Below are positions 1-52,963 of a DNA stretch of 64,000 nucleotides, piece by piece. A model generated the notes under the pieces. It was not told the origin of the DNA, did not search any database, and saw only the letters and a list, made by a program, of their open reading frames with translations. Position 1 is the stretch's first letter. Every line of letters starts with the position of its first letter. The translations under genes and the position numbers were made by a program. Source of the stretch: an uncultured virus (IMG/VR IMGVR_UViG_3300047312_000104). Taxonomy: Duplodnaviria; Heunggongvirae; Uroviricota; Caudoviricetes. The stretch lies in IMG/VR virus record IMGVR_UViG_3300047312_000104. The stretch is one strand, 5' to 3'.

Positions 1-57
1 AGCTTCGACTGTTGGATCATCCGGATGTGCTGGATTGGGTCAAACCCGAGAGGATCC

Positions 58-666
58 TTAGACATCCCGGGGGTCTTTGTGGTTGGCGGCGTAGCGGATG
101 ACATCTTTCTCTGATGTCAGGATATGTGATACATCGACTTGACCGTTTGGAGCCTGGGCCGGAGTCGTGATGGACTCGTCGTTACGTACCATGGTTATAT
201 CACCATTCGCCCCAACCCGAAGCTTCTGGACCGGTATCGTGACGCCTACGCTCGCGTTAATCGAGTCGGCCAACGGGACAGGATACATGATGCAAGGCGA
301 CACGTTACGGTCGTGCAGGTTAACGGTGTCGCCCGGGTAACCGATGATCTCGGTAGGGATTCGACGGGCTTTGGACTTGGATCCAGAATCGTTGAAGTGA
401 CTCGGGGTTCCGCCGGTTTCTAGGGCCTTGGCCCGCATAACCTTGTGGTAGTCATAGCCTGGACGCCAGGCCGAGAAGGCCTCTTGGAACTCTCTCTTGG
501 CATCGAAAGCTTTCTGAGCGTCGTCGACCGCCGTTTTAGCTTTAGCCGCGGCCTTCTCGTCTGCCGCCTGTTTTAAGTAAATGACGATAATCGGCCAGCC
601 GAGGATCGCGGCCGAGAAGACTATGGTGGGGACGACGACCCACATGAACCAAGAGAGGGTAAACAT
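58..666 (-). CDS. hypothetical protein with N-terminal transmembrane helix
   Basis: 202-aa ORF, hydrophobic N-terminus, 1 nt from upstream ORF. Confidence 0.7.
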   Translation of the reverse strand: MFTLSWFMWVVVPTIVFSAAILGWPIIVIYLKQAADEKAAAKAKTAVDDAQKAFDAKREFQEAFSAWRPGYDYHKVMRAKALETGGTPSHFNDSGSKSKARRIPTEIIGYPGDTVNLHDRNVSPCIMYPVPLADSINASVGVTIPVQKLRVGANGDITMVRNDESITTPAQAPNGQVDVSHILTSEKDVIRYAANHKDPRDV

Positions 667-667
667 A

Positions 668-919
668 TTAGGCCTTCACTGTGAGGAGTTCTTTGAAGAT
701 ACGCTTGAGCCGGCCAGGCCCATCATACGGGCCATGGTACGAAACTGTCCAGGAGGCAACGTCGTCACGACCAGCAACGGTTGACCGGTACTGGGACCCA
801 AGGGGAGTCGGGTGAGCGCGAAACAGGGCGCCGCAGATGTGGCGTGTAAGCCACCAGAGGACCTGACCGAGCAGGAGCCCTAGACCCAAGTTAAGGATAA
901 AGGTTAGGTGGAAGTCCAA
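668..919 (-). CDS. small membrane protein
   Basis: hydrophobic N-terminus; AAGGGGACCC just before TTG start. Confidence 0.6.
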   Translation of the reverse strand: MDFHLTFILNLGLGLLLGQVLWWLTRHICGALFRAHPTPLGSQYRSTVAGRDDVASWTVSYHGPYDGPGRLKRIFKELLTVKA

Positions 920-939
920 GGGGTCCCCTTATGGGCTAC

Positions 940-966
940 AGGATAAGGGGATTAACTGTGAGTCAA
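940..966 (-). promoter_or_regulatory. putative promoter TTGACT-N15-TATCCT
   Basis: recurrent motif with fixed 15-nt spacer, just after the last tRNA. Confidence 0.55.
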
Positions 967-970
967 GAGA

Positions 971-1045
971 TGGTTCACGAGCAGGGATTCAAACCCCGGT
1001 TCATCGCTTCAAAGGCGACAGTCTTATCAATTAGACGACTCGTGA
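971..1045 (-). tRNA. tRNA-Gln(TTG)
   Basis: cloverleaf, anticodon arm GTCGC-CTTTGAA-GCGAT, CCA encoded. Confidence 0.9.
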
Positions 1046-1049
1046 GTGA

Positions 1050-1126
1050 TGGTTGCCCCAGGAGGTCTCGAACCTCCATCACCGGCTTCAGAGACCGGGG
1101 TTATTACCTGGTTAAACTACAGGGCA
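1050..1126 (-). tRNA. tRNA-Gln(CTG)
   Basis: CCGGT-CTCTGAA-GCCGG, TTCGAGA T-loop, CCA. Confidence 0.92.
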
Positions 1127-1131
1127 TCGAA

Positions 1132-1208
1132 TGGTGGGGGCGGTGGGATTTGCACCCACAGGGAAGATGCGTTTAAGGCATCCACGTCTGCTGTTCCGTC
1201 ACACCCCT
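1132..1208 (-). tRNA. tRNA-Leu(TAA), short variable loop
   Basis: GATGC-CTTAAAC-GCATC, A73, CCA. Confidence 0.88.
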
Positions 1209-1211
1209 AGA

Positions 1212-1287
1212 TGGTCCCCCTCCCCGGATTTGAACCGGGATCAGACTGTTTTTGAAACAGCCGCCTCTGCCGTTGGGCTAGAAGGGG
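1212..1287 (-). tRNA. tRNA-Leu(CAA), short variable loop
   Basis: GCTGT-TTCAAAA-ACAGT, A73, CCA. Confidence 0.9.
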
Positions 1288-1288
1288 A

Positions 1289-1364
1289 TGGTACCGATCC
1301 TGGGGGTTGCACCCAGACTTTGTAGTCTCTCAAACTACTGCCTCTGCTATTGGGCTAGACCGGT
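1289..1364 (-). tRNA. tRNA-Leu(GAG), short variable loop
   Basis: GTAGT-TTGAGAG-ACTAC, A73, CCA. Confidence 0.9.
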
Positions 1365-1367
1365 AAG

Positions 1368-1443
1368 TGGTACCGAGAGAGGGATTTGCACCCACACTGA
1401 ACTGGTTCTAAGCCAGCTGCCTCTGCTGTTGGGCTATCTCGGC
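1368..1443 (-). tRNA. tRNA-Leu(TAG), short variable loop
   Basis: GCTGG-CTTAGAA-CCAGT, A73, CCA. Confidence 0.9.
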
Positions 1444-1478
1444 GTGATTACTGTATTGATGTCAAAGATCTATAAAAC

Positions 1479-1508
1479 ACAAAAACCCGACCTTTCGGCC
1501 GGGTTTTT
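1479..1508 (-). terminator. intrinsic terminator of attenuator A
   Basis: minus strand AAAAACCCGGCC-GAAA-GGTCGGGTTTTT: GC stem, GNRA loop, U-tract, just upstream of the Leu/Gln tRNAs. Confidence 0.85.
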
Positions 1509-1549
1509 GGGTTCACCTTTACGGTGTTTTCGGTCTAGGCGACCATCCC

Positions 1550-1615
1550 TTAACCACGGCCATGAGGCTGAGGTAACTGTTGGAGCAACAGGAGGAGGGA
1601 CAGGGTGGTACGCAT
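1550..1615 (-). CDS. Leu/Gln-rich leader peptide MRTTLSLLLLLQQLPQPHGRG (attenuator A)
   Basis: ATG CGT ACC ACC CTG TCC CTC CTC CTG TTG CTC CAA CAG TTA CCT CAG CCT CAT GGC CGT GGT TAA; not in ORF track (too short); last codons complementary to terminator 5' arm. Confidence 0.85.
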   Translation of the reverse strand: MRTTLSLLLLLQQLPQPHGRG

Positions 1616-1625
1616 GACGACTCTA

Positions 1626-1653
1626 AGGATAAACCATAGGGGATCTGATGCAA
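1626..1653 (-). promoter_or_regulatory. putative promoter of leader A (TTGCAT-N16-TATCCT), overlapped by inverted repeat CATAGGGG...CCCCTATG
   Basis: -10 ends 10 nt before leader ATG. Confidence 0.5.
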
Positions 1654-1663
1654 GCCCCTATGT

Positions 1664-1677
1664 GGTAGATATCTCAA
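1664..1677. repeat. 14-bp inverted repeat, partner at 7647-7660
   Basis: GGTAGATATCTCAA is the exact reverse complement of TTGAGATATCTACC. Confidence 0.85.
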
Positions 1678-1679
1678 GA

Positions 1680-1758
1680 TGGTCCAAGTGGGAGGGCTGT
1701 TCACCTCCTAGCTCCGCGTTAAAAGCACGGCCCCTCGCCTCATTCGGGTTTCACTTGG
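1680..1758 (-). tRNA. tRNA-Lys(TTT), atypical (A8, 8-nt T-loop)
   Basis: acceptor CCAAGTG/CACTTGG, CCGTG-CTTTTAA-CGCGG, CCA. Confidence 0.8.
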
Positions 1759-2147
1759 TTAAGTTTTTTCTTACGTCTTAGATCTCGTTGATATGCATTA
1801 TTAGCCTCGCGGCATACGTCGCAGCGGCAATAGTGTCGGTAACTGGATTTGGTGCCGTGTAGTCCTTTCGTAGGCGACTGCCCGAGATCAACGATGGTTT
1901 TAGCAGTATGACAAGTTTGACAGAGAATTTGACACTTAATGAGCTCAGCCTCAAACCTGGCCTTGGAAACGCTCCACTTATTGCCCAATCCAAAAAGTTT
2001 GGTACTAGGGTCAACGTGGTCCAATTGTAAGTCGCGTGTGCTACTACATTTAATGCACTTACCGCCTAGTCTAATTATGGCGTCAGCCATGCGAGCGCGA
2101 TAACGCTTCAGCATGTACGTACGCATATATTCGGCTGAATTCGACAT
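1740..2147 (-). CDS. HNH endonuclease
   Basis: CxxC...LQLDHVDP...CQILCQTCH motif; AT-richer than flanks; start taken at MSNSAEY because longer ORF overlaps tRNAs. Confidence 0.85.
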   Translation of the reverse strand: MSNSAEYMRTYMLKRYRARMADAIIRLGGKCIKCSSTRDLQLDHVDPSTKLFGLGNKWSVSKARFEAELIKCQILCQTCHTAKTIVDLGQSPTKGLHGTKSSYRHYCRCDVCREANNAYQRDLRRKKKLNQVKPE

Positions 2148-2189
2148 GGATTTGATCATGAAGACATAACAGCTAGTGCAATAGACAAA

Positions 2190-2264
2190 TGGGTTCATAG
2201 ACGGGAATCGCACCCGCGTTACCTGCGCCACAAGCAAGTGTCCTGCTATTGAACGACTATGAAC
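2190..2264 (-). tRNA. tRNA-His(GTG)
   Basis: CTTGC-TTGTGGC-GCAGG, encoded G-1 pairing with C73, CCA. Confidence 0.92.
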
Positions 2265-2271
2265 ATGAAAA

Positions 2272-2343
2272 TGGCCCGGGGCCAGGGGATTGAACCCTGC
2301 AAGCTCGGTTTTGGAGGCCAAGCACCGCCCTAGCGGGCCCCAG
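2272..2343 (-). tRNA. tRNA-Trp(CCA), reduced D-arm
   Basis: loop CTCCAAA, G73, TTCAATC T-loop, CCA. Confidence 0.8.
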
Positions 2344-2349
2344 ATGAAA

Positions 2350-2424
2350 TGGTCCGAACACTAGGGGTTGCACCTAGCTCGCACAGATTTATCAGACCTG
2401 GCGCGACAACTGGTCGATGTTCGG
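2350..2424 (-). tRNA. tRNA-Ile(GAT), reduced D-arm
   Basis: CAGGT-CTGATAA-ATCTG, 1-nt connector, CGAC-CAGTT-GTCG D-arm, CCA. Confidence 0.85.
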
Positions 2425-2712
2425 TTATGTGCGCTTGATGAAGCGCGGGTCCTTCTGAAATTCTTTGTAGGTGATCCGGGTGTTGGGTTTGGCCCCACAG
2501 CCTGTGATCAGCGACGAGCCGCTAGACAGCGACACGAAGTCGATTCCGCGCCGACCGTGCCTGCCGGTGAACTCCTTGTATCGTAACACCGCGCAGCCTG
2601 ACCCATCACAACGAATGCATACGACCGCGTTCCCATCCCCCTCGCACATCCCGCTATAGAGCCCCGTACCCCCGCACTCACCACACTCGGTGTCGATCTG
2701 CTTGGTAGCCAC
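2425..2712 (-). CDS. DnaJ-type CxxCxGxG zinc-finger protein
   Basis: CGECGGTG and CIRCDGSG. Confidence 0.75.
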   Translation of the reverse strand: MATKQIDTECGECGGTGLYSGMCEGDGNAVVCIRCDGSGCAVLRYKEFTGRHGRRGIDFVSLSSGSSLITGCGAKPNTRITYKEFQKDPRFIKRT

Positions 2713-2713
2713 G

Positions 2714-2980
2714 TTAGGGTCCGTTCTTGAGCCAGTTTTGATACTCGGGCCGTGCTTCGATTTCCTTGCACGCTTCCTTGAACCGGAACTGGATGTGGTC
2801 GTAGAGGGAGAAGTGGTGGGCGGAAGCTTCGAGGAGGAGACGGTCCACTGCCAACATGTGGATCAGGGGTCCACATGAGATGCTGAAGACAACCTGCTGA
2901 TCCTGGATGACCGGAGTAGGGTCGTCGTAGTCATCCCGGCAGAGATGTAGTTTGGGGGCCGTGTCGGGAGTTTCGGACAT
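2714..2980 (-). CDS. hypothetical protein
   Basis: ORF abutting next gene; ATG start MSETPD. Confidence 0.6.
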   Translation of the reverse strand: MSETPDTAPKLHLCRDDYDDPTPVIQDQQVVFSISCGPLIHMLAVDRLLLEASAHHFSLYDHIQFRFKEACKEIEARPEYQNWLKNGP

Positions 2981-3014
2981 GCCCACATGCTCTATGGCGG
3001 GAAAGGATGTCAAG

Positions 3015-3088
3015 TGGTGCTCATGCGAGGAATCGCACCTCGATCACACCCATACCAGGGGCGTGTACTTCTGTTGTACTACACGAGC
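3015..3088 (-). tRNA. tRNA-Thr(GGT)
   Basis: CGCCC-CTGGTAT-GGGTG, CCA. Confidence 0.9.
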
Positions 3089-3094
3089 GTAAAA

Positions 3095-3165
3095 TGGTGC
3101 CCCCAGGAGGACTTTACCTCCGTCGCAGCGGTACAAAGGCTGCATCCTAGCTAGACGATAGGGGC
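3095..3165 (-). tRNA. tRNA-Thr(TGT), short D-loop
   Basis: loop TTTGTAC (C-C mismatch at base), T-loop TAAAGTC, CCA. Confidence 0.8.
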
Positions 3166-3172
3166 GTAAGAA

Positions 3173-4015
3173 TCAGATGACTGGAAGAAGGCTACCGCAT
3201 TCGTGACAGAACTTGGCGTCCTTGGCCAGCTTAGTCCCGCACCCATGACAGTACTGGACCTTGGCCGCAACCTTAGGCTCCTCGCCGGTCTTGGGGGCGT
3301 GGACGGTAAACCGGAACTCAGAATACTGATCATCCCCGGCCCAGGTGGTGGTCCCAAAGGTCTGGTTCGAGTTAGCGCCCCCGACCGTGGCCCCCTTGAG
3401 CCCGTCTGAGATCGCTGCCTCAGGGGCCAGACCCCTGGTGGGGCTGCAACTCTCGACACAACAGTCGAGGGTCGTGTGGGACATGTTGCTCATCCCATAT
3501 GTGGTGGGCGGCATCGGGGTGCTGGACCCGAGAGTAATCTGGTGGTCCCACCACGGGTGGGTGGGCCAGGATGGATAGGCTGGATTATAGGGCCAGGACG
3601 ATGGGCGGTACGGAGGGTACTGGTCGCAGATCTTCTTCCACTCGTCGATCTTGGGCGTGTCCTTCTCGGTCCACACTTTGACCACAATATGGCCATTGTC
3701 GGGCGACCCAGGATCCTGGACGGCCCCGTGGTCCTTCTTGACGAACTTGAACCGTTCCGACGACTGGATGAACCGTTCGAGGGTATCCGTTGGACCCGAG
3801 AAGATCAATTCCCCGATCGAGCTCCCATCGATCCAAAATTGGACCCGGCGGCGCTTCCCGTCAGTGGTCTTGATCCGGAAGCTATACTCGGTCCCGAACG
3901 GAATGGGGACCCTTGAGCGGCTTACATCACCCTCACGAGCGTGCTCGTATTCCCGGAAGGTCTTCCCGGTATTGGTGTCTTGAAGCGTAATAACGCAATT
4001 GCTGTAATGCATCAT
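3173..4015 (-). CDS. protein with C-terminal zinc ribbon
   Basis: 280 aa, ends YCHGCG...FCHECG; AAGGGGG RBS. Confidence 0.8.
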   Translation of the reverse strand: MMHYSNCVITLQDTNTGKTFREYEHAREGDVSRSRVPIPFGTEYSFRIKTTDGKRRRVQFWIDGSSIGELIFSGPTDTLERFIQSSERFKFVKKDHGAVQDPGSPDNGHIVVKVWTEKDTPKIDEWKKICDQYPPYRPSSWPYNPAYPSWPTHPWWDHQITLGSSTPMPPTTYGMSNMSHTTLDCCVESCSPTRGLAPEAAISDGLKGATVGGANSNQTFGTTTWAGDDQYSEFRFTVHAPKTGEEPKVAAKVQYCHGCGTKLAKDAKFCHECGSLLPVI

Positions 4016-4110
4016 TGGTTCCCCTTTTTAATCCGACCAGCGGCGGATGGTTTAGCTGGTAAGGAAATGGTGCGCCTTGAGTCTGACAAAAACTAACTAG
4101 GAGTCAATAG

Positions 4111-4185
4111 TGGAGTCGGTAGGGGGAATTGCACCCCCATCATCTGCTTGGAAGGCAGTCATTCTAGCTGTTGAACTATACCGAC
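4111..4185 (-). tRNA. tRNA-Gly(TCC)
   Basis: loop CTTCCAA, U73, CCA. Confidence 0.92.
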
Positions 4186-4192
4186 ATGTTGA

Positions 4193-4268
4193 TGGTGCCG
4201 TCGAGAGGAATTGCACCCCCGGTCTGCTCGATACGAATGAGCTGCTTTGCTGTCTAAGCTACAACGGC
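4193..4268 (-). tRNA. tRNA-Thr(CGT)
   Basis: loop TTCGTAT, CCA. Confidence 0.9.
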
Positions 4269-4273
4269 AGGAA

Positions 4274-4347
4274 TGGTCTGAACCCTAGGAGTTGGACCTA
4301 GCGAGAGCGCTTTATAAGAACGCCATGGCCGACCGGGCCAGATTCAG
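4274..4347 (-). tRNA. tRNA-Ile(TAT), reduced D-arm
   Basis: GCGTT-CTTATAA-AGCGC, GGCC-CGGTC-GGCC D-arm, CCA. Confidence 0.82.
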
Positions 4348-4350
4348 AGA

Positions 4351-4422
4351 TGGTCGCCAGAGGTGGAATTGCGCCACCCAACATGAGCTTATGAAACTCA
4401 GTTACCCCTTGGGTGTCTGGCG
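4351..4422 (-). tRNA. tRNA(CAT), Ile2 or elongator Met, reduced D-arm
   Basis: TGAGT-TTCATAA-GCTCA; same architecture as the two Ile tRNAs. Confidence 0.8.
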
Positions 4423-4423
4423 A

Positions 4424-4498
4424 TGGCCTCGTGGGACGGACTTGCACCGTCGTCGCGGCCTTCGGAGAGCCGTGTCCTATCTGTTAGACGACCACGAG
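4424..4498 (-). tRNA. tRNA-Arg(CCG)
   Basis: CGGCT-CTCCGAA-GGCCG, CCA. Confidence 0.92.
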
Positions 4499-4501
4499 AA
4501 A

Positions 4502-4575
4502 TGGAACGGACAGACGGGGTTGCGCCGTCGTACTCTCGTTGGCAACGAGACGCTCTACTGTTGAGCTATGTCCGC
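4502..4575 (-). tRNA. tRNA-Gly(GCC)
   Basis: TCTCG-TTGCCAA-CGAGA, U73, CCA. Confidence 0.92.
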
Positions 4576-4580
4576 ATGAA

Positions 4581-4657
4581 TGGTCCGCCGTGAAGGACTT
4601 GCGCCTTCATCCTTCGGGTAAGAACCGAATGCCTCTATCTGTTTAGGCCTACGGCGG
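4581..4657 (-). tRNA. tRNA-Lys(CTT)
   Basis: TTCGG-TTCTTAC-CCGAA, A8, CCA. Confidence 0.88.
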
Positions 4658-4663
4658 AGAAGA

Positions 4664-4744
4664 TGGACATGCCCGGGTGAATTTCACACCTGACTGGCCC
4701 GGTTGCAACGGGTCACCCGAATTTCGAGTTTAGGTTCGAGCATG
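4664..4744 (-). tRNA. tRNA-Cys(GCA), atypical 8/4 fold
   Basis: loop TTGCAAC, U73-CCA, 8-bp acceptor, 4-bp T-stem. Confidence 0.7.
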
Positions 4745-4754
4745 TTAAACTGGT

Positions 4755-5102
4755 TCAAAAAAGAAGCCAAAGGGTCGGGCAATCGGCTGGGTCCTCTGAG
4801 ATCTTTTGGGTGAGCTCTTCACGGATCTTGAGCAACTCCTTGGTCCAATCCCATGGGAAGGCGGGGCTGGGGTCCATCTTGTGAGCCAAAGGGATCTCCT
4901 TCAGCTCGTTCATGGTGAGGTGCCAACAGGTGATCAGGTACTGCCTCGTCTGGGCAGCACACTGGACCTTGTTGGTTTCACCCAAGATGTGAGGGGAGCC
5001 GAGGGTCTGCTTGTCCAACCTCTGGGCTGCCGAGAGCTCGCGGAGTTTGGCCCGGCAGTACTGGATATGGAGGCCTGTGATGGGATTACGGGTTGGGAGC
5101 AT
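4755..5102 (-). CDS. hypothetical protein
   Basis: ATG start MLPTRNP overlapping end of Pth2-like gene. Confidence 0.6.
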   Translation of the reverse strand: MLPTRNPITGLHIQYCRAKLRELSAAQRLDKQTLGSPHILGETNKVQCAAQTRQYLITCWHLTMNELKEIPLAHKMDPSPAFPWDWTKELLKIREELTQKISEDPADCPTLWLLF

Positions 5103-5451
5103 TTGGTGTCCACAATCTATGGTGTCTAAAGAGGCGCCTCGCGGCGCCGGTGATGGGAGCGGTCGCGAAGGCAGTCGCCTGATTTCCGATGTCAGGCTCA
5201 CGGAACAATATGTAGGGGATCTGGGCGGCGTCAAGCCGAGCGGCTTCATCGAGTAGCTGCTGTTCAGAAACAACACCACAGACCACTAATGCACTAGGGT
5301 CCGCGGGGGAGCATTGGGGGCCAGGTACCAGGCCTTTAGAAAGATGAATGCCAGCCTCGTGGGTGGCGTGAGCGGCTTGCACCAGCTGTTGTGCGATAGA
5401 CAGATCTTGTCTGACCAGCACGTAGACGTATAGAGTTTCCTAAGCCTTCAT
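5086..5451 (-). CDS. peptidyl-tRNA hydrolase type 2 (Pth2)-like protein with in-frame TAG at codon 4
   Basis: LYVYVLVRQDL...QLVQAAHA...FREPD...TAFATAP resembles PTH2 family; ATG AAG GCT TAG GAA ACT CTA TAC GTC TAC GTG CTG in frame. Confidence 0.8.
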
Positions 5452-6209
5452 GGTTGCATCCTGATCAGGCGGGCAGGCGCCGTCAAGTACTTACTAGTTG
5501 CCGGGCTGTGCCAGTCGCACCCGGCCAAACGCCGACGCTCTAAAGCTATGTCGTTGTCTATGTTGCGGTATGCGGGGCTGCTCAATAATGTTTCGACGAA
5601 GTTAAACAAGCCAGCCTCCCGTAGTACTGACTTATCGTATTCCGAAAACGCAATCCCAGATCCGGCCGTGTTGAAACGAGGCCTCAGGGCATGAATAAGC
5701 GCCGATTCAATCATACTCATTGTGTGTTCTTGAACTTCGAAATAGAAGACAAACTCCGGCGTAAGTCTTTGAGACTTAGTTTTGATAGCTCCACGGTGAC
5801 CTCGTTGGCGATCTCCTATACTGGTCGTTTTACCTATGTAAGTAATCTCGTTACTATTTATATGGAAATATATGCAAGCAAAAGATCTATAAAGAACATG
5901 CTCACGAACTCTGTCAGCTATGGTCTCAAGACAAGCCGGCACTGGTGGCGTGGCACCCAGATTACGAAGACACGGTATAGGCCACACGTGCCCCCAGGCT
6001 TGATATGTCTTACTCCAAATATCTAACTCTTTTTTAACGTATCGGATACGTCTAGTGCCACCCTTCGTTAATTGAATACTTATAGTAGGTAACCAGTTTT
6101 GACGAGAAAATAAAGAAAATCGCTCAATAGGCATATGTAAATAATCAGCAGCCTGCTCCGCGGTAAGAAGTTGGCCGGACTTCATTAATTTACTATACTT
6201 AGGCAACAT
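5448..6209 (-). CDS. HTH + GIY-YIG-like protein, probable homing endonuclease
   Basis: LLTAEQAADYL excisionase-type HTH; CIYF...YIGKT...R...H...E...FN; AT-rich. Confidence 0.75.
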   Translation of the reverse strand: MLPKYSKLMKSGQLLTAEQAADYLHMPIERFSLFSRQNWLPTISIQLTKGGTRRIRYVKKELDIWSKTYQAWGHVWPIPCLRNLGATPPVPACLETIADRVREHVLYRSFACIYFHINSNEITYIGKTTSIGDRQRGHRGAIKTKSQRLTPEFVFYFEVQEHTMSMIESALIHALRPRFNTAGSGIAFSEYDKSVLREAGLFNFVETLLSSPAYRNIDNDIALERRRLAGCDWHSPATSKYLTAPARLIRMQP

Positions 6210-6226
6210 TAAGCAACCCTTTGAAG

Positions 6227-6299
6227 CGTCTCCGACAGGAGTCGAACCTGCCTAGGGGAGTTTAGAATTCCCTGCCTCATGCCGATCAGCCACGGAGAC
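6227..6299 (-). tRNA. amber suppressor tRNA(CTA), CCA not encoded
   Basis: acceptor GTCTCCG/CGGAGAC-G73, GGGAA-TTCTAAA-CTCCC, T-arm GCAGG-TTCGACT-CCTGT. Confidence 0.85.
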
Positions 6300-6309
6300 A
6301 TGGGTGCCA

Positions 6310-6336
6310 ATCGTAGCCGTGAAGCGGGGAAGTCAA
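6310..6336 (-). promoter_or_regulatory. putative promoter TTGACT-N15-TACGAT for suppressor tRNA unit
   Basis: recurrent motif, 10 nt upstream of tRNA(CTA). Confidence 0.55.
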
Positions 6337-6338
6337 GA

Positions 6339-6415
6339 TGGTCTAGGTGAGAGGATTTGCACCTCCGACATCACGGTCCCAAACCGTGCGCTCTGCTAAA
6401 CTGAGCTACACCCAG
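6339..6415 (-). tRNA. tRNA-Pro(TGG)
   Basis: CACGG-TTTGGGA-CCGTG, CCA. Confidence 0.92.
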
Positions 6416-6422
6416 ATGAAAA

Positions 6423-6496
6423 TGGCGCCCCCACCCGGTGATGCTCCGGGCTTTCCTGATCGACAATCAGGCGTTCTGCTGATGAACCATGAAGGC
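6423..6496 (-). tRNA. tRNA-Asp(GTC)
   Basis: CCTGA-TTGTCGA-TCAGG, G73, CCA. Confidence 0.88.
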
Positions 6497-6500
6497 AAAA

Positions 6501-6575
6501 TGGTGGACCCGGGGAGACTTAAACTCCCAACTTCCTCGGTGCAAGCGAGGCATTCTATATTGGAATTACAGGCCC
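6501..6575 (-). tRNA. tRNA-Ala(TGC)
   Basis: loop CTTGCAC, G3-U70, CCA. Confidence 0.92.
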
Positions 6576-6577
6576 AA

Positions 6578-6694
6578 AACCACGCTTTCTACCCAGGCTA
6601 CTAGACTGGCTCTAAGGCCAGCGGGCGCGTGAACCCGATCGCTGCTGCCAAACTCTTCATCCATTGTAAATGAAGTGGCGGACAAGGCAGCGAA
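6578..6694 (-). ncRNA. unassigned structured RNA between tRNA-Met and tRNA-Ala
   Basis: long hairpin TCGCTGC..GCCA-CTTCAT..ATGAAG..TGGC-A-GCAGCGA plus CACGC/GCGTG-closed domain. Confidence 0.35.
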
Positions 6695-6696
6695 GA

Positions 6697-6773
6697 TGGT
6701 TGCGTGAGGCTGGACTTGCACCAGCGTTTTCGAGCTTATGAGACTCGCGAGATGGCTACTTCTCTACTCCGCA
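6697..6773 (-). tRNA. tRNA-Met(CAT), initiator-like
   Basis: CGAGT-CTCATAA-GCTCG, A11-U24, bulged acceptor, CCA. Confidence 0.82.
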
Positions 6774-6780
6774 GTGAAAA

Positions 6781-6870
6781 TGGAGCCCAGAGGTGGATTT
6801 ACGCCACCGACCTCCGCCTGTTAGGGCGGCGCTCTAGACCCCTTTCGGGACCCTGTTGAGCTACCTGGGC
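6781..6870 (-). tRNA. atypical tRNA-like gene: 6-nt anticodon loop CTAACA, hairpin inserted in D-loop
   Basis: acceptor GCCCAGG/TCTGGGC-U-CCA, D-stem GCTC/GAGC, CCGCC/GGCGG stem, GGTGG/CCACC T-stem. Confidence 0.65.
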
Positions 6871-6915
6871 ATGAGACTGAACTGTAACGAGCGGCACGAG
6901 ACCGCAAATCGAAAA

Positions 6916-6990
6916 TGGTAGGCAGTGAGGGAGTCGCACCCCCGACATCTGGAATGTAAAACCAGCGTTCCGCTGTTGAACTAACCGCCC
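6916..6990 (-). tRNA. tRNA-Val(TAC)
   Basis: loop TTTACAT, CCA. Confidence 0.9.
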
Positions 6991-6993
6991 GTG

Positions 6994-7068
6994 TGGCAGG
7001 CCTGGTAGGAATTGAACCTACACCGCGACGTTCGTAGCGTCGCATCATCTCCATTAGAATACAGGCCT
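6994..7068 (-). tRNA. tRNA-Arg(ACG)
   Basis: CGACG-CTACGAA-CGTCG, CCA. Confidence 0.92.
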
Positions 7069-7071
7069 AAA

Positions 7072-7145
7072 TGGTACTCGTAGGCGGTGCTGCCCCGCCT
7101 CTCTTTGGATGAAAGCCAAAGGTCCTACTGTTAGACGATACGAGC
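7072..7145 (-). tRNA. tRNA-Glu(TTC)
   Basis: TTTGG-CTTTCAT-CCAAA, CCA. Confidence 0.88.
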
Positions 7146-7153
7146 AAGAAAGT

Positions 7154-7273
7154 GCCGGCGTTCTACCATTGAACTACACCCTCCGCTTGGCTCTACCGTC
7201 AGTAGTCGGGCCTTGAGTCTAGCGGTCCCTTACGGGCAAGTGGGGCGTCGGGAATCGAACCCGAGTTTCCGGC
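7154..7273 (-). ncRNA. circularly permuted tRNA-like RNA (T-arm first, D-arm last)
   Basis: GCCGG-AAAC-TCGGG-TTCGATT-CCCGA-CGCCC...GGGTG-TA-GTTC-AATGGTA-GAAC-G-CCGGC. Confidence 0.8.
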
Positions 7274-7283
7274 GAGAATTGAA

Positions 7284-7361
7284 TGGTACCCATAGGGGGA
7301 GTCGCACCCCACGTCTTCACCGTGAGAGGGTGACGTCTTATCTAGCTTGGACCATATGGGC
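7284..7361 (-). tRNA. tRNA-Glu(CTC)
   Basis: TCACC-CTCTCAC-GGTGA, CCA. Confidence 0.88.
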
Positions 7362-7368
7362 ATGAAGA

Positions 7369-7437
7369 TGGCTAGGTCGGGCGGACTTTAACCGCCATGT
7401 TCGGTTTTAGGAGAACCAAGACCCATCTGGCGACCTA
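7369..7437 (-). tRNA. tRNA-Arg(CCT), nearly D-armless
   Basis: TTGGTT-CTCCTAA-AACCGA, D region CCAGATGGGTC, G73-CCA. Confidence 0.8.
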
Positions 7438-7443
7438 TCGGGA

Positions 7444-7512
7444 TGGCACGACCGGAAGGACTTTGACCTTCGCGCCTGGGTTTAGAAGACCCTGGACCCA
7501 TCTGGCGATCGT
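7444..7512 (-). tRNA. tRNA-Arg(TCT), nearly D-armless
   Basis: GGGT-CTTCTAA-ACCC, same D region CCAGATGGGTC, G73-CCA. Confidence 0.78.
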
Positions 7513-7521
7513 ATGAAAAAA

Positions 7522-7597
7522 TGGCTGCGGCGGAGGGACTCGAACCCCCTTGCTCCTAGTTAACAGCTAGGTACATGACCAGTTATGTTTCACCGCA
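7522..7597 (-). tRNA. tRNA-Asn(GTT)
   Basis: CCTAG-CTGTTAA-CTAGG, G73, CCA. Confidence 0.92.
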
Positions 7598-7646
7598 ATG
7601 TTGAAGACAAATCAGGGGGCCCCCAGACCATTCCGGAGGTCCCCCG

Positions 7647-7660
7647 TTGAGATATCTACC
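7647..7660. repeat. 14-bp inverted repeat, partner at 1664-1677
   Basis: TTGAGATATCTACC. Confidence 0.85.
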
Positions 7661-7683
7661 GATATAAAGTTGTCAACCGACCT

Positions 7684-7718
7684 AAACGAATGAACCCCGA
7701 GCTTTTGGCCCGGGGTTC
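7684..7718 (-). terminator. intrinsic terminator of attenuator B
   Basis: GAACCCCGGGC-CAAAA-GCTCGGGGTTC-ATTCGTTT (11-bp stem, interrupted U-tract). Confidence 0.75.
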
Positions 7719-7742
7719 CTGGAGTCAGAGTTTTGAGTCCTC

Positions 7743-7871
7743 TTATCCCTTTACCCCGGCCTGATTCTTTTTATTCCCGCGTTCCGCTGTCCTATCGCAC
7801 CCAATAGTGGTACCGTGGACCTTTGCGGGTCTCGGCCACGTGGCGGCTATAGTGGTGACGGTGGGGATCAT
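7743..7871 (-). CDS. 42-aa leader peptide MIPTVTTIAATWPRPAKVHGTTIGCDRTAERGNKKNQAGVKG (attenuator B)
   Basis: between promoter and terminator; amino-acid set matches downstream tRNAs; CCGGGGT near its end pairs with terminator 5' arm. Confidence 0.8.
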   Translation of the reverse strand: MIPTVTTIAATWPRPAKVHGTTIGCDRTAERGNKKNQAGVKG

Positions 7872-7896
7872 TGAAGGTAGCACACTCTGGTTCAGG

Positions 7897-7925
7897 ATGG
7901 TACTAGGAGTCGGATCAAAGGTCAA
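7897..7925 (-). promoter_or_regulatory. sigma70-like promoter TTGACC-N17-TACCAT of leader B
   Basis: -35 at 7920-7925, -10 at 7897-7902. Confidence 0.65.
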
Positions 7926-7928
7926 GCA

Positions 7929-8522
7929 TTAGACGGGAGTGAACGAAGCCTGGAGGACATAGGTACCAGCCGTACGGGCAAAGATCCCACCCGTGTCGGT
8001 CTTGATGTATACGTCCCCGTTAACCCCGACAGCATCATTCGGAGCGGAAGTCCCGAATCTGACGGTGGTCTGAACCGAAGCCGCAATGGCCGCATCTCGG
8101 TTAGTTACTTCGGCCGCTTCGGCTGCCTCGGCCCGCGCCACTTCGGCAATCAGGTCGTTGTTGACGTTCGTGACGCCAACGATTCGGGCGTTCGTTTCAT
8201 CATCTAGCGCATTCGAAAGCGCGGTATCGGCGTTCCCACGGGTAGTGGCTTCGGAGCTAATGGCGTTCGTCAGAACGATGTCAGCAGCAGTCCGGGCAAC
8301 AGTCTCAGCTGTGACGTCGACTCCACCCTCGCCACCAACCTGCACCCACACGGCCGCGCCGTCGATCGACGACGTACAGACGTATTCGTTGGCAGGATTG
8401 GTCAGGGTGTTGATCCACCGAGCCCCTACTTCGAAACCCTGAAGGTGACCATTGGCTGTGGTGGGAACACCAGCGCGCAGCACGTAGAGGTCACGGAGAA
8501 CGGCGAGGGTAAGTCTATGCAT
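7929..8522 (-). CDS. probable virion fibre/decoration protein
   Basis: coiled-coil E..AR..AD repeats; GTSAPNDAVGVNGDVYIKTDTG fibre-type motif. Confidence 0.7.
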   Translation of the reverse strand: MHRLTLAVLRDLYVLRAGVPTTANGHLQGFEVGARWINTLTNPANEYVCTSSIDGAAVWVQVGGEGGVDVTAETVARTAADIVLTNAISSEATTRGNADTALSNALDDETNARIVGVTNVNNDLIAEVARAEAAEAAEVTNRDAAIAASVQTTVRFGTSAPNDAVGVNGDVYIKTDTGGIFARTAGTYVLQASFTPV

Positions 8523-8562
8523 AGGAAGTCCTTAGGGGTAAACCATGGATATGGTAGTAATA

Positions 8563-8590
8563 AAATTATCGAAATATATAGCAGGTACAA
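8563..8590 (-). promoter_or_regulatory. putative structural-gene promoter TTGTAC-N16-TAATTT
   Basis: same motif and spacing at 13103-13130 and 13497-13524. Confidence 0.6.
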
Positions 8591-8626
8591 GAAGCCAGTG
8601 TGGACCCTATCGGGCCCCACTGGCTC
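8589..8626 (-). terminator. hairpin/terminator after long fibre gene
   Basis: GAGCCAGTG...CACTGGCTTC-TT. Confidence 0.5.
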
Positions 8627-11615
8627 AATCCAAGGTGATCCTGAGATCAGGACAAATCTGAGTAGTCGCGATAGCGATTATGGCCCCGGTGAAGGGTCCG
8701 GTGCCGGTCAGAACGCCGGACGACACGGTCGACTGAACCAACCCTTGAGACATATCATAGGCCAAAGCAACAAAAGTTGGCTGGGTGGTATTCTGTGCAG
8801 TCCTAATGCCTGCCCACAAGTGGGTTCCGGCGGTAACACTAGTGGCAAACGCCGATGTATTGCGTTTAACCCCAGTAGAGTTCATGGAATCAACTGTGCC
8901 GGTCGACACGATTTTGGTCATCGATAGACCGGTCTTGTTTGGCCCAGTAGTGGTTGAGAATAAGCCAACCTCCGCCGTCTGGGTACCAGTACCACCGGTC
9001 GAGACGTGGAACTCAACAAATTTAGGAGTGAAGGTTGTGGTGACACGACCAACATAGACGAAATAGGCGGTACCACTTATGGTCAAGAAGCCCGTCGCGT
9101 GGTTGGACAACGTGGATTTGAAAACCCGTTCGTTATCCTCACAGCCGGTTCCCAATCTAGCGTCATTACCGACGCACAGGGTTGTGCTCGATGTACCAGC
9201 CAAGAGGGCCGCGGACTGGGTAACGGTCATCGCCTCTGGGACACCGGTACCGGCGGTGGTTCTGCCGATGAACGTAGCGGTGGCGACGTTAGCCATTTTG
9301 GCCAGCGTGACGGCCGCTGTAGCGATCGTAGTAGCCAACGATCCAGCCGAGTTGGTCACGTCACCCGTAAACGCAGGTACGACACCCGTCGGTATGGTGG
9401 TCAGCGATTCGACGTTACCAGTACCGGCAGTATTACGACCAAGGACAGTAGCTGTCGAAACAGTGGCCATTTTGGCCAGCGTGACGGCATTGGCAGCAAT
9501 TGTAGTCGCGAGTGAACCAGCTGAGTTGGTGACATCACCCGTCAGGGCAGGCATCGTCCCGGTAGGGATAGTGGTCAGAGATTCGACGTTGCCAGTACCA
9601 GCAGTGTTGCGGCCAAGGAGAGTGGCGGTTGAAACAGTCGCCATCTTGGCCAGCGTCACAGCATTGGCGGCTATGGTGGTGGCTAGAGCACCCCCGGCAG
9701 TCGTTACGTCACCGGTAAAGGCTGGCACCGTGCCGGTCGGGATCGTGGACAATACCTCGACAACACCCGTGCTGGCGGTGTTACGACCAAGGATGGACGC
9801 GGTGGCGACGTTAGCCATTTTGGCCAGCGTGACGGCGCTGTTGGCGATGGTCGTCGCGAGGGCACCACCGGCGGTTGTTACGTCACCGGTCAGGGCAGGC
9901 ATGCAGCCTGTGGGGAGCGTCGCTAACGACTCAGGGACACCGGTTCCGGCGGTGTTACGACCGATGATGTGCGCGGTCGCGAGATCGGCCATCTTGGCCA
10001 GCGTGACGGCACTGGTGGCGATCGTGGTAGCGAGGGCACCCCCGGCAGTCGTTACGTCACCGGTAAAAGCAGGGACGCAGCCGGTCGGCAACGTGGCGAG
10101 TGACTCAGGGACACCAGTCCCGGCAGTGTTACGCCCGATGATGTGGGCGGTGGCGAGGTTGGCCATCTTGGCCAACGTAACCGCTGCCGTGGCAATCGTC
10201 GTAGCCAACGATCCAGCTGAATTGGTTACATCACCCGTGAATGCCGGGACAACGCCCGTCGGGATCGTGGTGAGAACCTCGGGGTCCCCCGTCCCGGCTG
10301 TGTTACGCCCAAGAACGCTAGCGGTGGCGATGTCGGCCATCTTGGCCAGCGTCACCGCGTTATTGGCAATTGTCGTAGCCAACGACCCGCCTGTGTTGGT
10401 CACATCGCCGGTCAAGGCGGGCATACAACCAGTCGGAAGTGTTGCTAATGACTCGGGGACACCAGTCCCGGCAGTGTTACGCCCGATGATGTGGGCGGTG
10501 GCAAGGTTAGCCATCTTGGCCAGCGTGACGGCCCCGCTTGTGATGGTGGCGTCGAACCCACTCGCCAAACCAGTGAAATCTACATCGCCAGCACCACCGG
10601 GGAAACTCCCCATGGTTGTGTTCATCAACTTCAGAAATAGATCATTTCCAAAAACGCCATTCGACACACCGACAAACATATACGGTTTAAGGGCATATTT
10701 GGTTCCCTCGTCGGCCACCACGATACGGCCTACCACTTTGGCGTACGTGTCGGCGTCAGGAGCACGCGTCCAGTCACCGGTATGAACTATCCAGATACCA
10801 TCACCATCGCTAACGGGTTGCTCCCCTACTGCAATCCGATCACCGTCGACAAGCGCAACCCCGTCTACCGTTTGTTCACCACTTAGGGTCAAATCGTTCT
10901 CGCCCCAGAGTACCCGAACATAGGCAACACTAGGGATCGTAGTAGCGGAGGTAATGCGACCCTTGACGTCTACCGCGATACTCGGGATATTGATCGCATC
11001 CCCATAAGTGGCAGCCGTCACACCTGAGTTTGCCAGAGTGGTGGCAACAGTTCCGGCCGAGGTCGTCACATCGCCCGTCAGGGCTGGCATCTGGGCTGCG
11101 GCCACCGACCCGGCTAGGTTGCTAACTGTGATCGGATCCGACCCGGCTGATGAATGGGTTGTGGCGTGGGCCGTGGGGGTCCTTGCGTCAGCCAACCGGG
11201 CGTCGTTACCGACACATAGGGTAGTGGCCGAAGTACCAGCCAACTCAGCGGCCAACTGGGTCTCGGTCAGGTCGATCGCGTTAGCGGTGCTACCAGTGTT
11301 GTTGCCCTTGAACGTGTGGGCAGCCATCTGGGCCATCTTGGCATTGGTGATCTGGTTGGCGTTAACATCCGCCGTATCAACCAGCTTAGCAGCGCCGTCC
11401 TGGGTCCCCGACGTGACGTGGACGAATCCAGTCCCGGTAGGGGTCGAGGAGGCGTTGACCTTAATCCACGTTCCCGGTGATCCGGCAGTCTGGCATAGGT
11501 ACAGATCCCCTGCCGAATCGACGATCAGTTCACCTTCATCGTGAGTACCACTCGACGGCGCCCCCGAGGACGCCGTCGGGACTAGTTCGATCCCATTATA
11601 GAACGGGGTAGCCAT
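8625..11615 (-). CDS. long tail/head fibre-like protein with 58-aa tandem repeats
   Basis: 996 aa, T/A/G-rich, AVTLAKMA...TGDVT repeats, VDGVALVDGDRI...W.RA.DAD fibre domain. Confidence 0.85.
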   Translation of the reverse strand: MATPFYNGIELVPTASSGAPSSGTHDEGELIVDSAGDLYLCQTAGSPGTWIKVNASSTPTGTGFVHVTSGTQDGAAKLVDTADVNANQITNAKMAQMAAHTFKGNNTGSTANAIDLTETQLAAELAGTSATTLCVGNDARLADARTPTAHATTHSSAGSDPITVSNLAGSVAAAQMPALTGDVTTSAGTVATTLANSGVTAATYGDAINIPSIAVDVKGRITSATTIPSVAYVRVLWGENDLTLSGEQTVDGVALVDGDRIAVGEQPVSDGDGIWIVHTGDWTRAPDADTYAKVVGRIVVADEGTKYALKPYMFVGVSNGVFGNDLFLKLMNTTMGSFPGGAGDVDFTGLASGFDATITSGAVTLAKMANLATAHIIGRNTAGTGVPESLATLPTGCMPALTGDVTNTGGSLATTIANNAVTLAKMADIATASVLGRNTAGTGDPEVLTTIPTGVVPAFTGDVTNSAGSLATTIATAAVTLAKMANLATAHIIGRNTAGTGVPESLATLPTGCVPAFTGDVTTAGGALATTIATSAVTLAKMADLATAHIIGRNTAGTGVPESLATLPTGCMPALTGDVTTAGGALATTIANSAVTLAKMANVATASILGRNTASTGVVEVLSTIPTGTVPAFTGDVTTAGGALATTIAANAVTLAKMATVSTATLLGRNTAGTGNVESLTTIPTGTMPALTGDVTNSAGSLATTIAANAVTLAKMATVSTATVLGRNTAGTGNVESLTTIPTGVVPAFTGDVTNSAGSLATTIATAAVTLAKMANVATATFIGRTTAGTGVPEAMTVTQSAALLAGTSSTTLCVGNDARLGTGCEDNERVFKSTLSNHATGFLTISGTAYFVYVGRVTTTFTPKFVEFHVSTGGTGTQTAEVGLFSTTTGPNKTGLSMTKIVSTGTVDSMNSTGVKRNTSAFATSVTAGTHLWAGIRTAQNTTQPTFVALAYDMSQGLVQSTVSSGVLTGTGPFTGAIIAIATTQICPDLRITLD
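9215..10535 (-). repeat. 174-nt coding tandem repeat, 7 complete units plus a partial eighth
   Basis: AVTLAKMA codons recur at 174-nt intervals. Confidence 0.9.
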
Positions 11616-16291: not shown

Positions 16292-16846
16292 TCAAGCAGG
16301 TTTACCAACTGTCGTTATGCCATGTGCGCGATTAGCGGCTTGCAGGTAAACCAATGTCGCAGCAACTCCGTCTTCTGTATCACCAAGCTGTCCTATCCCT
16401 AAGTTATGCTTATTGCACAGTAGCCCCCGTACTATGCCTGTTTTATGGTCATGATCAACGAGAAGTGGTCTATCATCACTGTGCGTAACCTCGCACCCAT
16501 TAACTGCGCATCTATAGTCCTGCCGGTCTAAAAGCTCGTTGTACTGGGTTACTGTGAGCCCGTATAGATTTTTAAGTAAATGTTCACGATGTTTTTTAAT
16601 ATCAACTAACTTTTGCTGTTTTGATCGGGCGGCCAAACGCATTTTACTGTAGCACGGGTTGCACATTTCTTTTGCATAATGTAACTTTTTCTTATTACAC
16701 GCTATACAAACACTGAATTTTTCCAGACCAGCGCGCCTAGTCGACCTTAGGTAGCGTTTGTAGCACGACGCACACCTTTCTTTAGCATAGTGTTTTCGCC
16801 GCTTACCGCAAACCTTACAAACACACAATTTTTTAATAGATGACAT
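16292..16846 (-). CDS. endonuclease VII-domain homing endonuclease
   Basis: YGLT..QY..LL..Q...CA...VDHDH.TG.VRGLLC..HN.GIG; AT-rich. Confidence 0.88.
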   Translation of the reverse strand: MSSIKKLCVCKVCGKRRKHYAKERCASCYKRYLRSTRRAGLEKFSVCIACNKKKLHYAKEMCNPCYSKMRLAARSKQQKLVDIKKHREHLLKNLYGLTVTQYNELLDRQDYRCAVNGCEVTHSDDRPLLVDHDHKTGIVRGLLCNKHNLGIGQLGDTEDGVAATLVYLQAANRAHGITTVGKPA

Positions 16847-16848
16847 AA

Positions 16849-23307: not shown

Positions 23308-24046
23308 GGGTCACCAGCACTCGATCTTGGCTTCACGGAACAGATCGGCGGTGCCGTCGTCTTCGACCCACTCGCCCGCCCACAGGGCGATCGAGTCGCG
23401 GTAGTGTTCGGCCTGCTGGTACGAGACGAACTTCTTGGCGCCCTCAACCGTGGGTGAATCTAGGAGTTGGTCATCCCACATGTCGCTATAGTCGTCGAAC
23501 GAATCATCGGCGGCAAATAGGCCATTGGGGAGATGGATGATGTACATGGTAGCCTTTAGTTAGGGTAGGTCGACGACTGTAGTGTCGCCTGACTTATCGT
23601 CAAGATCATCTTCCGACAAAGGGTCCATATCGACGGTCTCAGCTTCCTCGAAGGCGATCTGTTGGGGCGGCTTGGTCAGATGAAGAGGAGGGGGCCCAAG
23701 GGGTCCTTCGGTGGTTCCTCCGAGGGTCCCGATGTCGAGCCCGAGCGGCAAGAGGAACCGCTGGGCGCGCATTAACAAAATGTCGGTCTGCTCGCCGCAC
23801 ACGGCCTTGGTCCACGGTTCCGTGATGGTGGTCCGGAAGCGCAGCATCAAAGTAGCGGCTTCCTCGACCGTATACTTCCCAGCGTCCACCATGGAGGCCA
23901 GACTGTAGAGGAACCTAGTGGGGATATAGTTGATGACCGGATCCTCGTCCCGCTGCTCAGACAGTGGATACCGGATCTCACGGATCTGAGCGGCTTTCCG
24001 CATCAGGGCCGAATACTCTTTAGGGGTAAAGACTGGGAGTTCGGGT

Positions 24047-52925: not shown

Positions 52926-52963
52926 AAAAGAAAAGAACAGGGGGCCCACTGGGGGACCCCCTG
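52926..52963 (-). terminator. intrinsic terminator
   Basis: CAGGGGG-TCCC..GGG-CCCCCTG-TTCTTTTCTTTT. Confidence 0.75.

Follow-up and report, generated by a model that had tools for sequence, protein, structure and literature searches.

A candidate leader-peptide attenuator at the head of a large tRNA cassette in an uncultured tailed phage

Introduction

Why should an open reading frame (ORF) of 42 codons that avoids leucine, serine, phenylalanine and tyrosine altogether stand ahead of a tRNA cassette in which tRNAs for the same four amino acids are missing? The question is raised by a stretch of 64,000 nucleotides from an uncultured virus of the Caudoviricetes (IMG/VR record IMGVR_UViG_3300047312_000104), hereafter the window, in which a short ORF and a terminator-like hairpin, together named element B, separate the last tail gene from a large tRNA array. 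The timing and control of phage tRNA gene expression are poorly understood, and it is reportedly debated, in eLife in 2023 and in related papers, whether phage tRNAs serve to compensate for codon usage or to make good the loss of tRNAs that host defences destroy. Here, we describe the composition and predicted folding of element B, an internal paralogue (element A) and an independent analogue in Microbacterium phages, and conclude that element B is probably a transcription attenuator controlled by translation of its leader peptide. Coordinates refer to the window unless another genome is named; pairs written in descending order denote the minus strand.

Results

Leader ORF B spans positions 7871-7743 and comprises 42 sense codons (MIPTVTTIAATWPRPAKVHGTTIGCDRTAERGNKKNQAGVKG) followed by a stop (ATG at 7871, TAA at 7745-7743). 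It encodes 16 different residues, among them not a single Leu, Ser, Phe or Tyr (L/S/F/Y). The ORF samples the Ile codons ATC, ATA and ATT, the Thr codons ACC, ACT, ACG and ACA, the Arg codons AGA, AGG and CGC and the Lys codons AAA and AAG, includes the rare codons ATA, AGA, AGG, ACA and GCA, uses TGG, TGC, CAC, GAT and GAA once each, and carries a lone CAG as codon 37. The 58 long ORFs of the window served as gene background. There, L/S/F/Y account for 20.1% of residues, and under this composition the probability of finding none of them in 41 codons is 1.0e-4; 0 of 10,492 gene windows of 41 codons are free of the four residues. Among stop-free windows of all six frames four out of 40,153 are, two of these four being leader B itself, which is the longest L/S/F/Y-free, stop-free run of the window in any frame. 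Shuffling of the T-poor sequence of leader B (12.7% T) produced equivalent runs in 15 of 49,277 cases when mononucleotides (3.0e-4) and in 11 of 5,824 cases when dinucleotides (1.9e-3) were preserved. The run is moreover tied to frame and ORF limits: it begins exactly at the ATG, the preceding codon being TCA, and ends two codons past the TAA. Seven of the 18 in-frame codons just upstream of the ATG encode L, S or F (Fisher P = 9e-5), and L, S and Y do appear when this DNA is read in its two remaining frames.

The presumed cargo, cassette B (7597-1680), carries ~27 tRNA or tRNA-like genes of 24 sense anticodon classes. It belongs to a 6.6 kb tRNA region on the minus strand (7597 to 971) that follows the last tail gene (7929-8522), and homing-endonuclease and other ORFs are interspersed among its tRNAs. 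These serve N, R, E, V, M, A, D, P, K, G, I, T and H, with candidates for C and W and a CTA suppressor tRNA in addition, and include no tRNA for Leu, Ser, Phe, Tyr or Gln. ARAGORN identified 19 tRNAs with default settings and Rfam 23 at or above the gathering score; relaxed ARAGORN settings added Arg-TCT, Arg-CCT and Trp-CCA, and assignment by hand, with minimum-free-energy cloverleaf folds, contributed Glu-TTC, another tRNA with anticodon CAT, Lys-TTT, a Cys-GCA candidate and an odd tRNA of uncertain type. The codons of leader B touch 22 of the 24 anticodon classes of cassette B, a coverage reached by 2 of 10,434 gene windows (mean 15.2). When draws are made from the 15 served amino acids only, this coverage has a probability of 0.03, and the presence of all 15 one of 0.13. 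The exclusion of L/S/F/Y is a strong signal and even sampling a modest extra; the composition of leader B is real and non-random. The initial annotation had portrayed the ORF as a checklist of the full tRNA set behind it. We recovered its ORF and every codon it listed, including the absence of CGG and GAG, and the likelihood of a leader without L/S/F/Y, which it had left to be computed, is indeed low. The mirroring claim stands statistically. The set of 15 served amino acids is likewise borne out, in 24 anticodon classes, with the Cys and Trp tRNAs reduced to candidates.

The 3′ end of leader B runs into a conserved 17-nt motif, GGCCGGGGTAAAGGGAT (7761-7745), whose first 9 nt (7761-7753) constitute region 2, the 5′ strand of a predicted antiterminator. 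Its partner, region 3 (ACCCCGGGCC, 7716-7707), is at the same time the 5′ arm of a terminator-like hairpin (7718-7692, with a tail to 7682) of 11 bp, 8 of them G-C, with a folding energy of -20.1 kcal/mol and a weak T tail (ATTCGTTTAG). The heptamer CCGGGGT (7759-7753) is complementary to ACCCCGG (7716-7710), and folding pairs region 2 (GGCCGGGGU) with ACCCC-GGCC of region 3. When the nascent RNA is folded before region 4, the 3′ arm of the terminator, the antiterminator (-25.5 kcal/mol) forms as a long-range helix in which the GGG of the motif also takes part, with an ensemble probability of 2:3 pairing of 0.93-1.0. With the 3′ arm present, the terminator wins over the antiterminator. The TAA at 7745-7743 sits 8 nt past region 2. 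Before region 3 exists, GGGAU of the motif pairs with a C-rich stretch near the ORF start in both A and B, a weak hint that GGGAT:AUCCC, involving codons 2-3 of leader B, could be a region 1:2 helix. Minus-strand hairpins of 10 or more pairs, with 7 or more being G-C, occur just three times in the 64 kb, namely in B, in A and in a gene-end terminator at 52963. The 251-nt region as a whole is not unusually stable (z = -0.62). A promoter scan was negative for sigma-70-like promoters in the stretch from terminator B to the first tRNA, and an Rfam scan of positions 1-9000 at E<=1 yielded nothing beyond tRNAs and weak matches attributable to chance, with no T-box, Leu_leader, Thr_leader, His_leader or Trp_leader.

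A second copy of this arrangement, element A, is found within the same tRNA region. Leader A (1615-1550; MRTTLSLLLLLQQLPQPHGRG followed by TAA) has 21 codons and is rich in Leu and Gln. It leads into switch A (1561-1480), which consists of the motif GGCCGTGGTTAAGGGAT (1561-1545) and a 13-bp terminator with a T run (1509-1480), and is followed by cassette A (1443-971) with the tRNAs Leu-TAG, Leu-GAG, Leu-CAA, Leu-TAA, Gln-CTG and Gln-TTG. Half of the 20 codons after the ATG encode Leu or Gln; CTG, CTC, TTG, TTA, CAA and CAG are all among them, so that none of the six anticodons downstream is left without a codon. As many Leu plus Gln codons are found in 0 of 11,710 gene windows of 20 codons (maximum 8). 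In all frames, 11 of 68,502 windows reach 10, and 8 of these 11 cover all six classes, presumably as overlapping windows of leader A. The exact motif GGCCGNGGTNAAGGGAT has just two copies within 64 kb, those of elements A and B. Both elements are also alike in their terminators and in a TTGACA placed 14 nt (A) or 15 nt (B) after the hairpin, while the leader sequences cannot be aligned; the motif is identical in both, its flanks having diverged. Separate folding of A and B yields the same architecture. In A, region 2 (GGCCG-UGGUU) pairs with region 3 (AACC-CGGCC), the antiterminator reaches -28.9 kcal/mol before the 3′ arm is present with a 2:3 pairing probability of 0.85-0.87, the terminator has -22.9 kcal/mol, and the TAA of leader A lies inside the motif and region 2. 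Leader A, rich in Leu and Gln, precedes Leu and Gln tRNAs only; within this one genome, what a leader is composed of therefore follows the local set of tRNAs. On this point the initial annotation, which had regarded leaders that fail to follow their local tRNAs as fatal to its proposal, is supported from within the genome. The architecture it described, with leader ORF, antiterminator and terminator, holds in our folds, and so does its 7-nt pairing between 7759-7753 and 7716-7710.

The TTGACA after both hairpins (7676-7671 in B, 1465-1460 in A) has no explanation in an attenuator model, and TTGAC[AT] is likewise found after tRNAs at 3013, 4107 and 966. We considered it as a promoter element and rejected this, as no acceptable -10 sequence accompanies it and in A the start would fall inside a tRNA.

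Both leaders start in open RNA. Within 50 nt around the ATG, folding energies are -1.6 kcal/mol for leader B and -4.1 kcal/mol for leader A, compared with a mean of -8.9 (standard deviation 4.3) for 49 gene starts, 2% of which are as open as leader B, and -11.4 kcal/mol for random sites. Phage genes in the window mostly lack Shine-Dalgarno sequences, and unstructured start codons of the leaders fit such a phage. The alternative in-frame starts GTG 7883 and TTG 7925 are more structured (-6.6 and -6.9 kcal/mol). A promoter-like sequence, TTGACC-17-TACCAT (7925-7897; 9/12 match), directly follows the tail-gene stop at 7931-7929; transcripts over element B may come from read-through of the structural operon instead of an own promoter. 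The TAA of the tail gene is in frame with leader B, and hypothetical read-through of it would add 62 residues. A 15-nt near-repeat between leader B (7790-7776) and the D arm of tRNA-Val is within the range of chance repeats.

A comparable design was encountered in Microbacterium phages. Pumpernickel (NC_073468.1) was the first large phage opened from the list of blastn matches to cassette A. It harbors two unannotated mini-ORFs, each predicted to be leaderless behind an extended -10 promoter and each followed by a hairpin. Mini-ORF 1 (MRTYELDFHLEPR; within Pumpernickel 17620-17760) precedes tRNAs for Pro (three), His, Met, Asp, Glu (two), Tyr, Phe and Leu (four), and fits all seven non-Met amino acids of this cassette into 12 codons (P = 6.6e-4 by simulation; 0 of 8,369 protein windows). 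Mini-ORF 2 (MFSSKRNQWTRTVSSVNGISGLR; within Pumpernickel 23653-23815), behind the second extended -10 promoter and ahead of a strong hairpin, precedes tRNAs for Ser, Lys, Gly, Thr, Val, Asn, Arg, Trp and Gln, and draws 19 of its 22 codons from this set (P = 1.6e-4; 0 of 7,959 windows). The partition of the two mini-ORFs over the two cassettes (2x2 table 9,3 / 2,19) is significant (Fisher P = 2.5e-4). Both recur, with peptides conserved at the amino-acid level, in Cece, A3Wally, Zooman and, at a greater distance, Magritte; the five related records found by blastn leave them unannotated. In Magritte, leader and cassette change together: cassette 2 has gained Ala-TGC and has no Trp tRNA, and leader 2 has gained Ala (two codons) and lost Trp. 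Of the matched lineages, which also include Bacillus and Pseudomonas phages, two were opened, and one of these has the analogue. Two annotation details came to light on the way: the tRNA labels of the A3Wally record MZ150783.1 read the anticodon as codon, such that 'tRNA-Trp(tgg)' is Pro-TGG by ARAGORN, and the Pumpernickel record has no annotation for a Tyr-GTA tRNA at 19344-19416.

Relatives of the phage were sought by several routes, and none turned up in any collection. Four soil or rhizosphere DNA runs carry fragments identical to the window over 7600-7991, leaving no variation to analyse; no RNA run was listed among the carriers, and the phage is known just from soil metagenomes. Searching phages by blastn with 7400-8700 yielded no match, tblastn of the 1422- and 730-amino-acid proteins yielded none either, blastn of cassette A against phages returned single-tRNA matches only, and searches for the exact terminator sequence and for the odd tRNA-Arg pattern gave no match. 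In IMG/VR, the 280- and 730-amino-acid proteins had no relatives, and the 197-amino-acid tail protein had one weak locus, without tRNAs. A search with the 996-amino-acid tail protein gave 28 related loci, none with a tRNA array and three with 1-3 tRNAs. The 17-nt motif occurs at 59 IMG/VR loci, by inspection without a hairpin after it; 58 of them lack tRNAs, and the remaining one has five tRNAs with the motif in a coding-like context. A motif-plus-terminator pattern matched metagenome contigs at 16 loci and genome contigs at 7; tRNAs are absent from every one of them, and the numbers are about those expected by chance.

The window is phage-like, with nearly all long ORFs on the minus strand, and encodes a tail-protein-like gene of 1422 amino acids, genes for minor tail and fibre proteins, two metallophosphoesterases and several homing endonucleases. 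The last group comprises five homing-endonuclease-like genes, of which three are of the endonuclease VII type, one is HNH and one GIY-YIG; they lie on the minus strand at 1740-2321, 5448-6209, 16292-16882, 29310-29864 and 42946-43551, two of them in the tRNA region; the HNH gene shares its end with a candidate Lys-TTT tRNA (~1758-1680). Two promoter-like sites of almost the same sequence, TTGAC[TA]-N15-CACAAT-[AG]GGGCCC, are located directly upstream of genes at 45085-45055 and 34468-34438, and a weaker relative of them, CACATAGGGGC, is situated upstream of leader A at ~1664.

Three sites with non-canonical tRNAs lie on the minus strand. The first (7512-7369) is a tandem of 69-nt Arg-TCT and Arg-CCT tRNAs with a reduced D arm, both missed by Rfam at E<=1. 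The second (6872-6781) is a tRNA-like gene whose D loop carries an extra hairpin and whose anticodon loop, CTAACA, has 6 nt. The third (7283-7150) contains loose fragments resembling tRNA halves between Glu-CTC and Glu-TTC. An amber-suppressor-type tRNA with anticodon CTA maps to 6299-6226. TAG is the rarest stop codon, ending 5 of the 58 long ORFs; recoding of TAG, considered on account of this tRNA, was rejected, as no in-frame TAG of the window is flanked by two open stretches of at least 70 codons. The tRNA region also holds an ORF (5421-5086) weakly resembling peptidyl-tRNA hydrolase of the PTH2 type (Pfam E = 0.014, below the cut-off), upstream of which the same frame reads ATG AAG GCT TAG.

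Discussion

We propose that element B is a ribosome-mediated transcription attenuator heading the large tRNA cassette, a reading that we regard as probable. It is supported by the frame-specific L/S/F/Y exclusion, the coverage of 22 of 24 anticodon classes, the paralogue A, the matching folds, the placement of the stop codons and the open starts, and further by the negative scan for a promoter ahead of the first tRNA, the Pumpernickel analogue and the whiB7 precedent discussed below. The sequence features, the statistics, the alternative folds and the paralogy are shown here; that the leader is translated, that the hairpin stops transcription, that the two are coupled and what triggers the switch in the cell we infer. 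Under fast translation, a ribosome at the TAA (7745-7743) would cover region 2, regions 3 and 4 would fold, and transcription would stop before the tRNAs. A ribosome delayed in codons 2-33 would leave region 2 free to pair with region 3, so that no terminator would form and RNA polymerase would read into the tRNA genes. With the accepted size of the ribosome footprint, which we used to place these zones, codons 2-33 would do the sensing, while the ribosome would mask region 2 at codons 34-42 (K K N Q A G V K G), the single Gln included. Since the leader codons, rare ones among them, specify amino acids served by the cassette, a delay would report a shortage of those tRNAs that read-through would replenish, and tRNA supply would be subject to a negative-feedback loop. 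Element A would act as a second, nested gate for the Leu and Gln tRNAs further downstream. Codon-usage mismatch, late-infection demand and host tRNA nucleases are candidate causes of such a shortage. The tRNA cleavage that the initial annotation favoured as the trigger is thus one possibility, any slowing of translation being another.

The hairpin could instead be a plain intrinsic terminator of the structural (tail) operon, with A and B being copies of a duplicated terminator module and the ORF composition being functionless. We consider this unlikely. Hairpin B does lie downstream of the last tail gene, where a terminator is to be expected given that terminators are rare in this phage; it lies however 211 nt after the tail-gene stop, compared with ~36 nt for the other strong gene-end terminator (52963). 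The promoter-like site at 7925-7897 is no better than chance, as 10 such sites were found in 9 kb versus 5.7 +/- 3.1 in shuffles, a difference that is not significant. Chance also produced two further 41-codon runs free of L/S/F/Y, both in non-coding frames. Against this, the run in leader B is frame-specific and starts exactly at its ATG, leader A independently matches its own cassette, and the antiterminator-forming motif is conserved exactly between diverged flanks.

A translation-independent RNA element, be it a processing or stability signal of the tRNA precursor, a protein-binding site (AAGGGAT, TTGACA) or a small RNA released by termination, is in our estimate improbable. It would draw on the 17-nt motif and the TTGACA common to A and B, the latter being unexplained by attenuation, and terminated attenuator RNAs can act in trans in other bacteria, as reported for rnTrpL in Sinorhizobium (PMC6614838). 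The frame-specific exclusion in B and the Leu/Gln run in A would be left unexplained, no Rfam family, T-box included, matched at E<=1 in 1-9000 apart from tRNAs and weak chance matches, and the 251-nt region is of ordinary stability. That the ORF encodes a functional protein of 42 residues, lacking L/S/F/Y by coincidence and next to a terminator unrelated to translation, is very unlikely: the frame is open, its ATG is unstructured and the Microbacterium peptides are conserved at the amino-acid level, but the 42-residue peptide has no homologue among 5.8 billion clustered proteins (23-74 residues), it has no L or F as hydrophobic core residues, and the 3′ end of the ORF is embedded in an RNA switch common to leader A, whose peptide is unrelated.

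Several observations weigh against the attenuator itself. The non-significant promoter match and the chance L/S/F/Y-free runs count here as well, and the pattern in leader B was noticed post hoc. Leader B has no Shine-Dalgarno sequence, and if the in-frame GTG 7883 were the true start, Leu and Ser codons would be added. CGG and GAG are unsampled despite matching cassette tRNAs. AAA, GTA and GGA are found in the last nine codons only, where a stall would mask region 2, so that the leader probably does not sense the three tRNAs sampled there. Non-canonical features mark the Cys and Trp tRNAs: they fold as cloverleaves by minimum free energy alone, Cys has no Rfam match and Trp scores 19 bits versus the tRNA-Sec model. 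Terminator B ends in a weak T tail, with T at 5 of 8 positions, and internal promoter-like sites at 5234 and 4204 could feed distal tRNAs. Leader A also holds one Ser codon and nine cassette-B-type codons. The evidence stems from one genome, and covariation is limited to the internal paralogue. In the Microbacterium phages, leader 1 of Magritte retains His without a His tRNA in the cassette, its leader 2 has no Cys although a Cys tRNA is present, and the Zooman leaders retain Tyr and Ser codons without such tRNAs by default ARAGORN. A third conserved mini-ORF fails to reflect the tRNAs of its cassette, the promoter motif is matched at two more places that lack a leaderless ORF, and the Pumpernickel leaders, folded by minimum free energy, showed no clean 2:3 helix. 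In Mycobacterium phage Rey, which was the second lineage opened, no such leader was apparent by eye.

Leader-peptide attenuators are classically known from amino-acid operons, as in trpL, hisL, leuL, thrL and the multivalent ilvGMEDA leader. Element B resembles them in its short ORF, in the alternative of a 2:3 antiterminator and a 3:4 intrinsic terminator, and in a stop codon placed for masking of region 2 by the ribosome; leader A has a Leu run like leuL. Unlike these systems, the elements described here are phage-borne, their cargo consists of tRNA genes rather than biosynthetic enzymes, and leader B has no codon run, offering single or few codons for 15 amino acids with four excluded. T-box riboswitches likewise sense tRNA status and set transcription read-through by a choice between antiterminator and terminator, but they bind uncharged tRNA directly, need no ORF and regulate synthetase and amino-acid genes. 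The Pumpernickel-group mini-ORFs share the occurrence of two leaders per genome, a hairpin after each and codons for the amino acids of the leader's own cassette. They differ in lacking sequence similarity to the elements of the window, in being shorter (13-25 codons) and on leaderless mRNAs behind extended -10 promoters, and in showing the alternative pairing less clearly. The closest experimental precedent for a multi-amino-acid sensor is the whiB7/wblC attenuator of Actinobacteria, in which a long upstream ORF (uORF) with many different amino acids acts as a broad sensor of translation stalling (PMC10274678). There, uORF composition sets which amino-acid shortages are sensed, one Trp codon suffices, and knock-down of tRNAs and tRNA synthetases activates the attenuator (PMC10274678). 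The whiB7 element, as characterized there, differs in being chromosomal, in having a transcription factor as cargo and in its Ala-enriched uORF (PMC10274678), and composition is here split between two leaders by the tRNA genes that each precedes.

A full-text search, with most subscription journals outside its reach, found no report of leader-peptide or attenuator control of phage tRNA genes. If our reading is true, the phage would sense tRNA shortage directly and answer it with the matching genes, in a closed feedback loop of a kind that we did not find described for tRNA genes. Two leaders that divide the amino acids by cassette within one genome make the idea directly testable by codon swaps, and the similar design in cultured, freely available Microbacterium phages renders such experiments feasible. 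More tentatively, phage tRNA arrays could in general be demand-driven modules, each gated by a leader with a matching codon repertoire, an arrangement that may have arisen independently in this soil phage and in the Pumpernickel group; by this means a phage might gauge, codon by codon, which tRNAs are lacking, for instance after the action of host anticodon nucleases, and transcribe only the cassette that repairs the loss.

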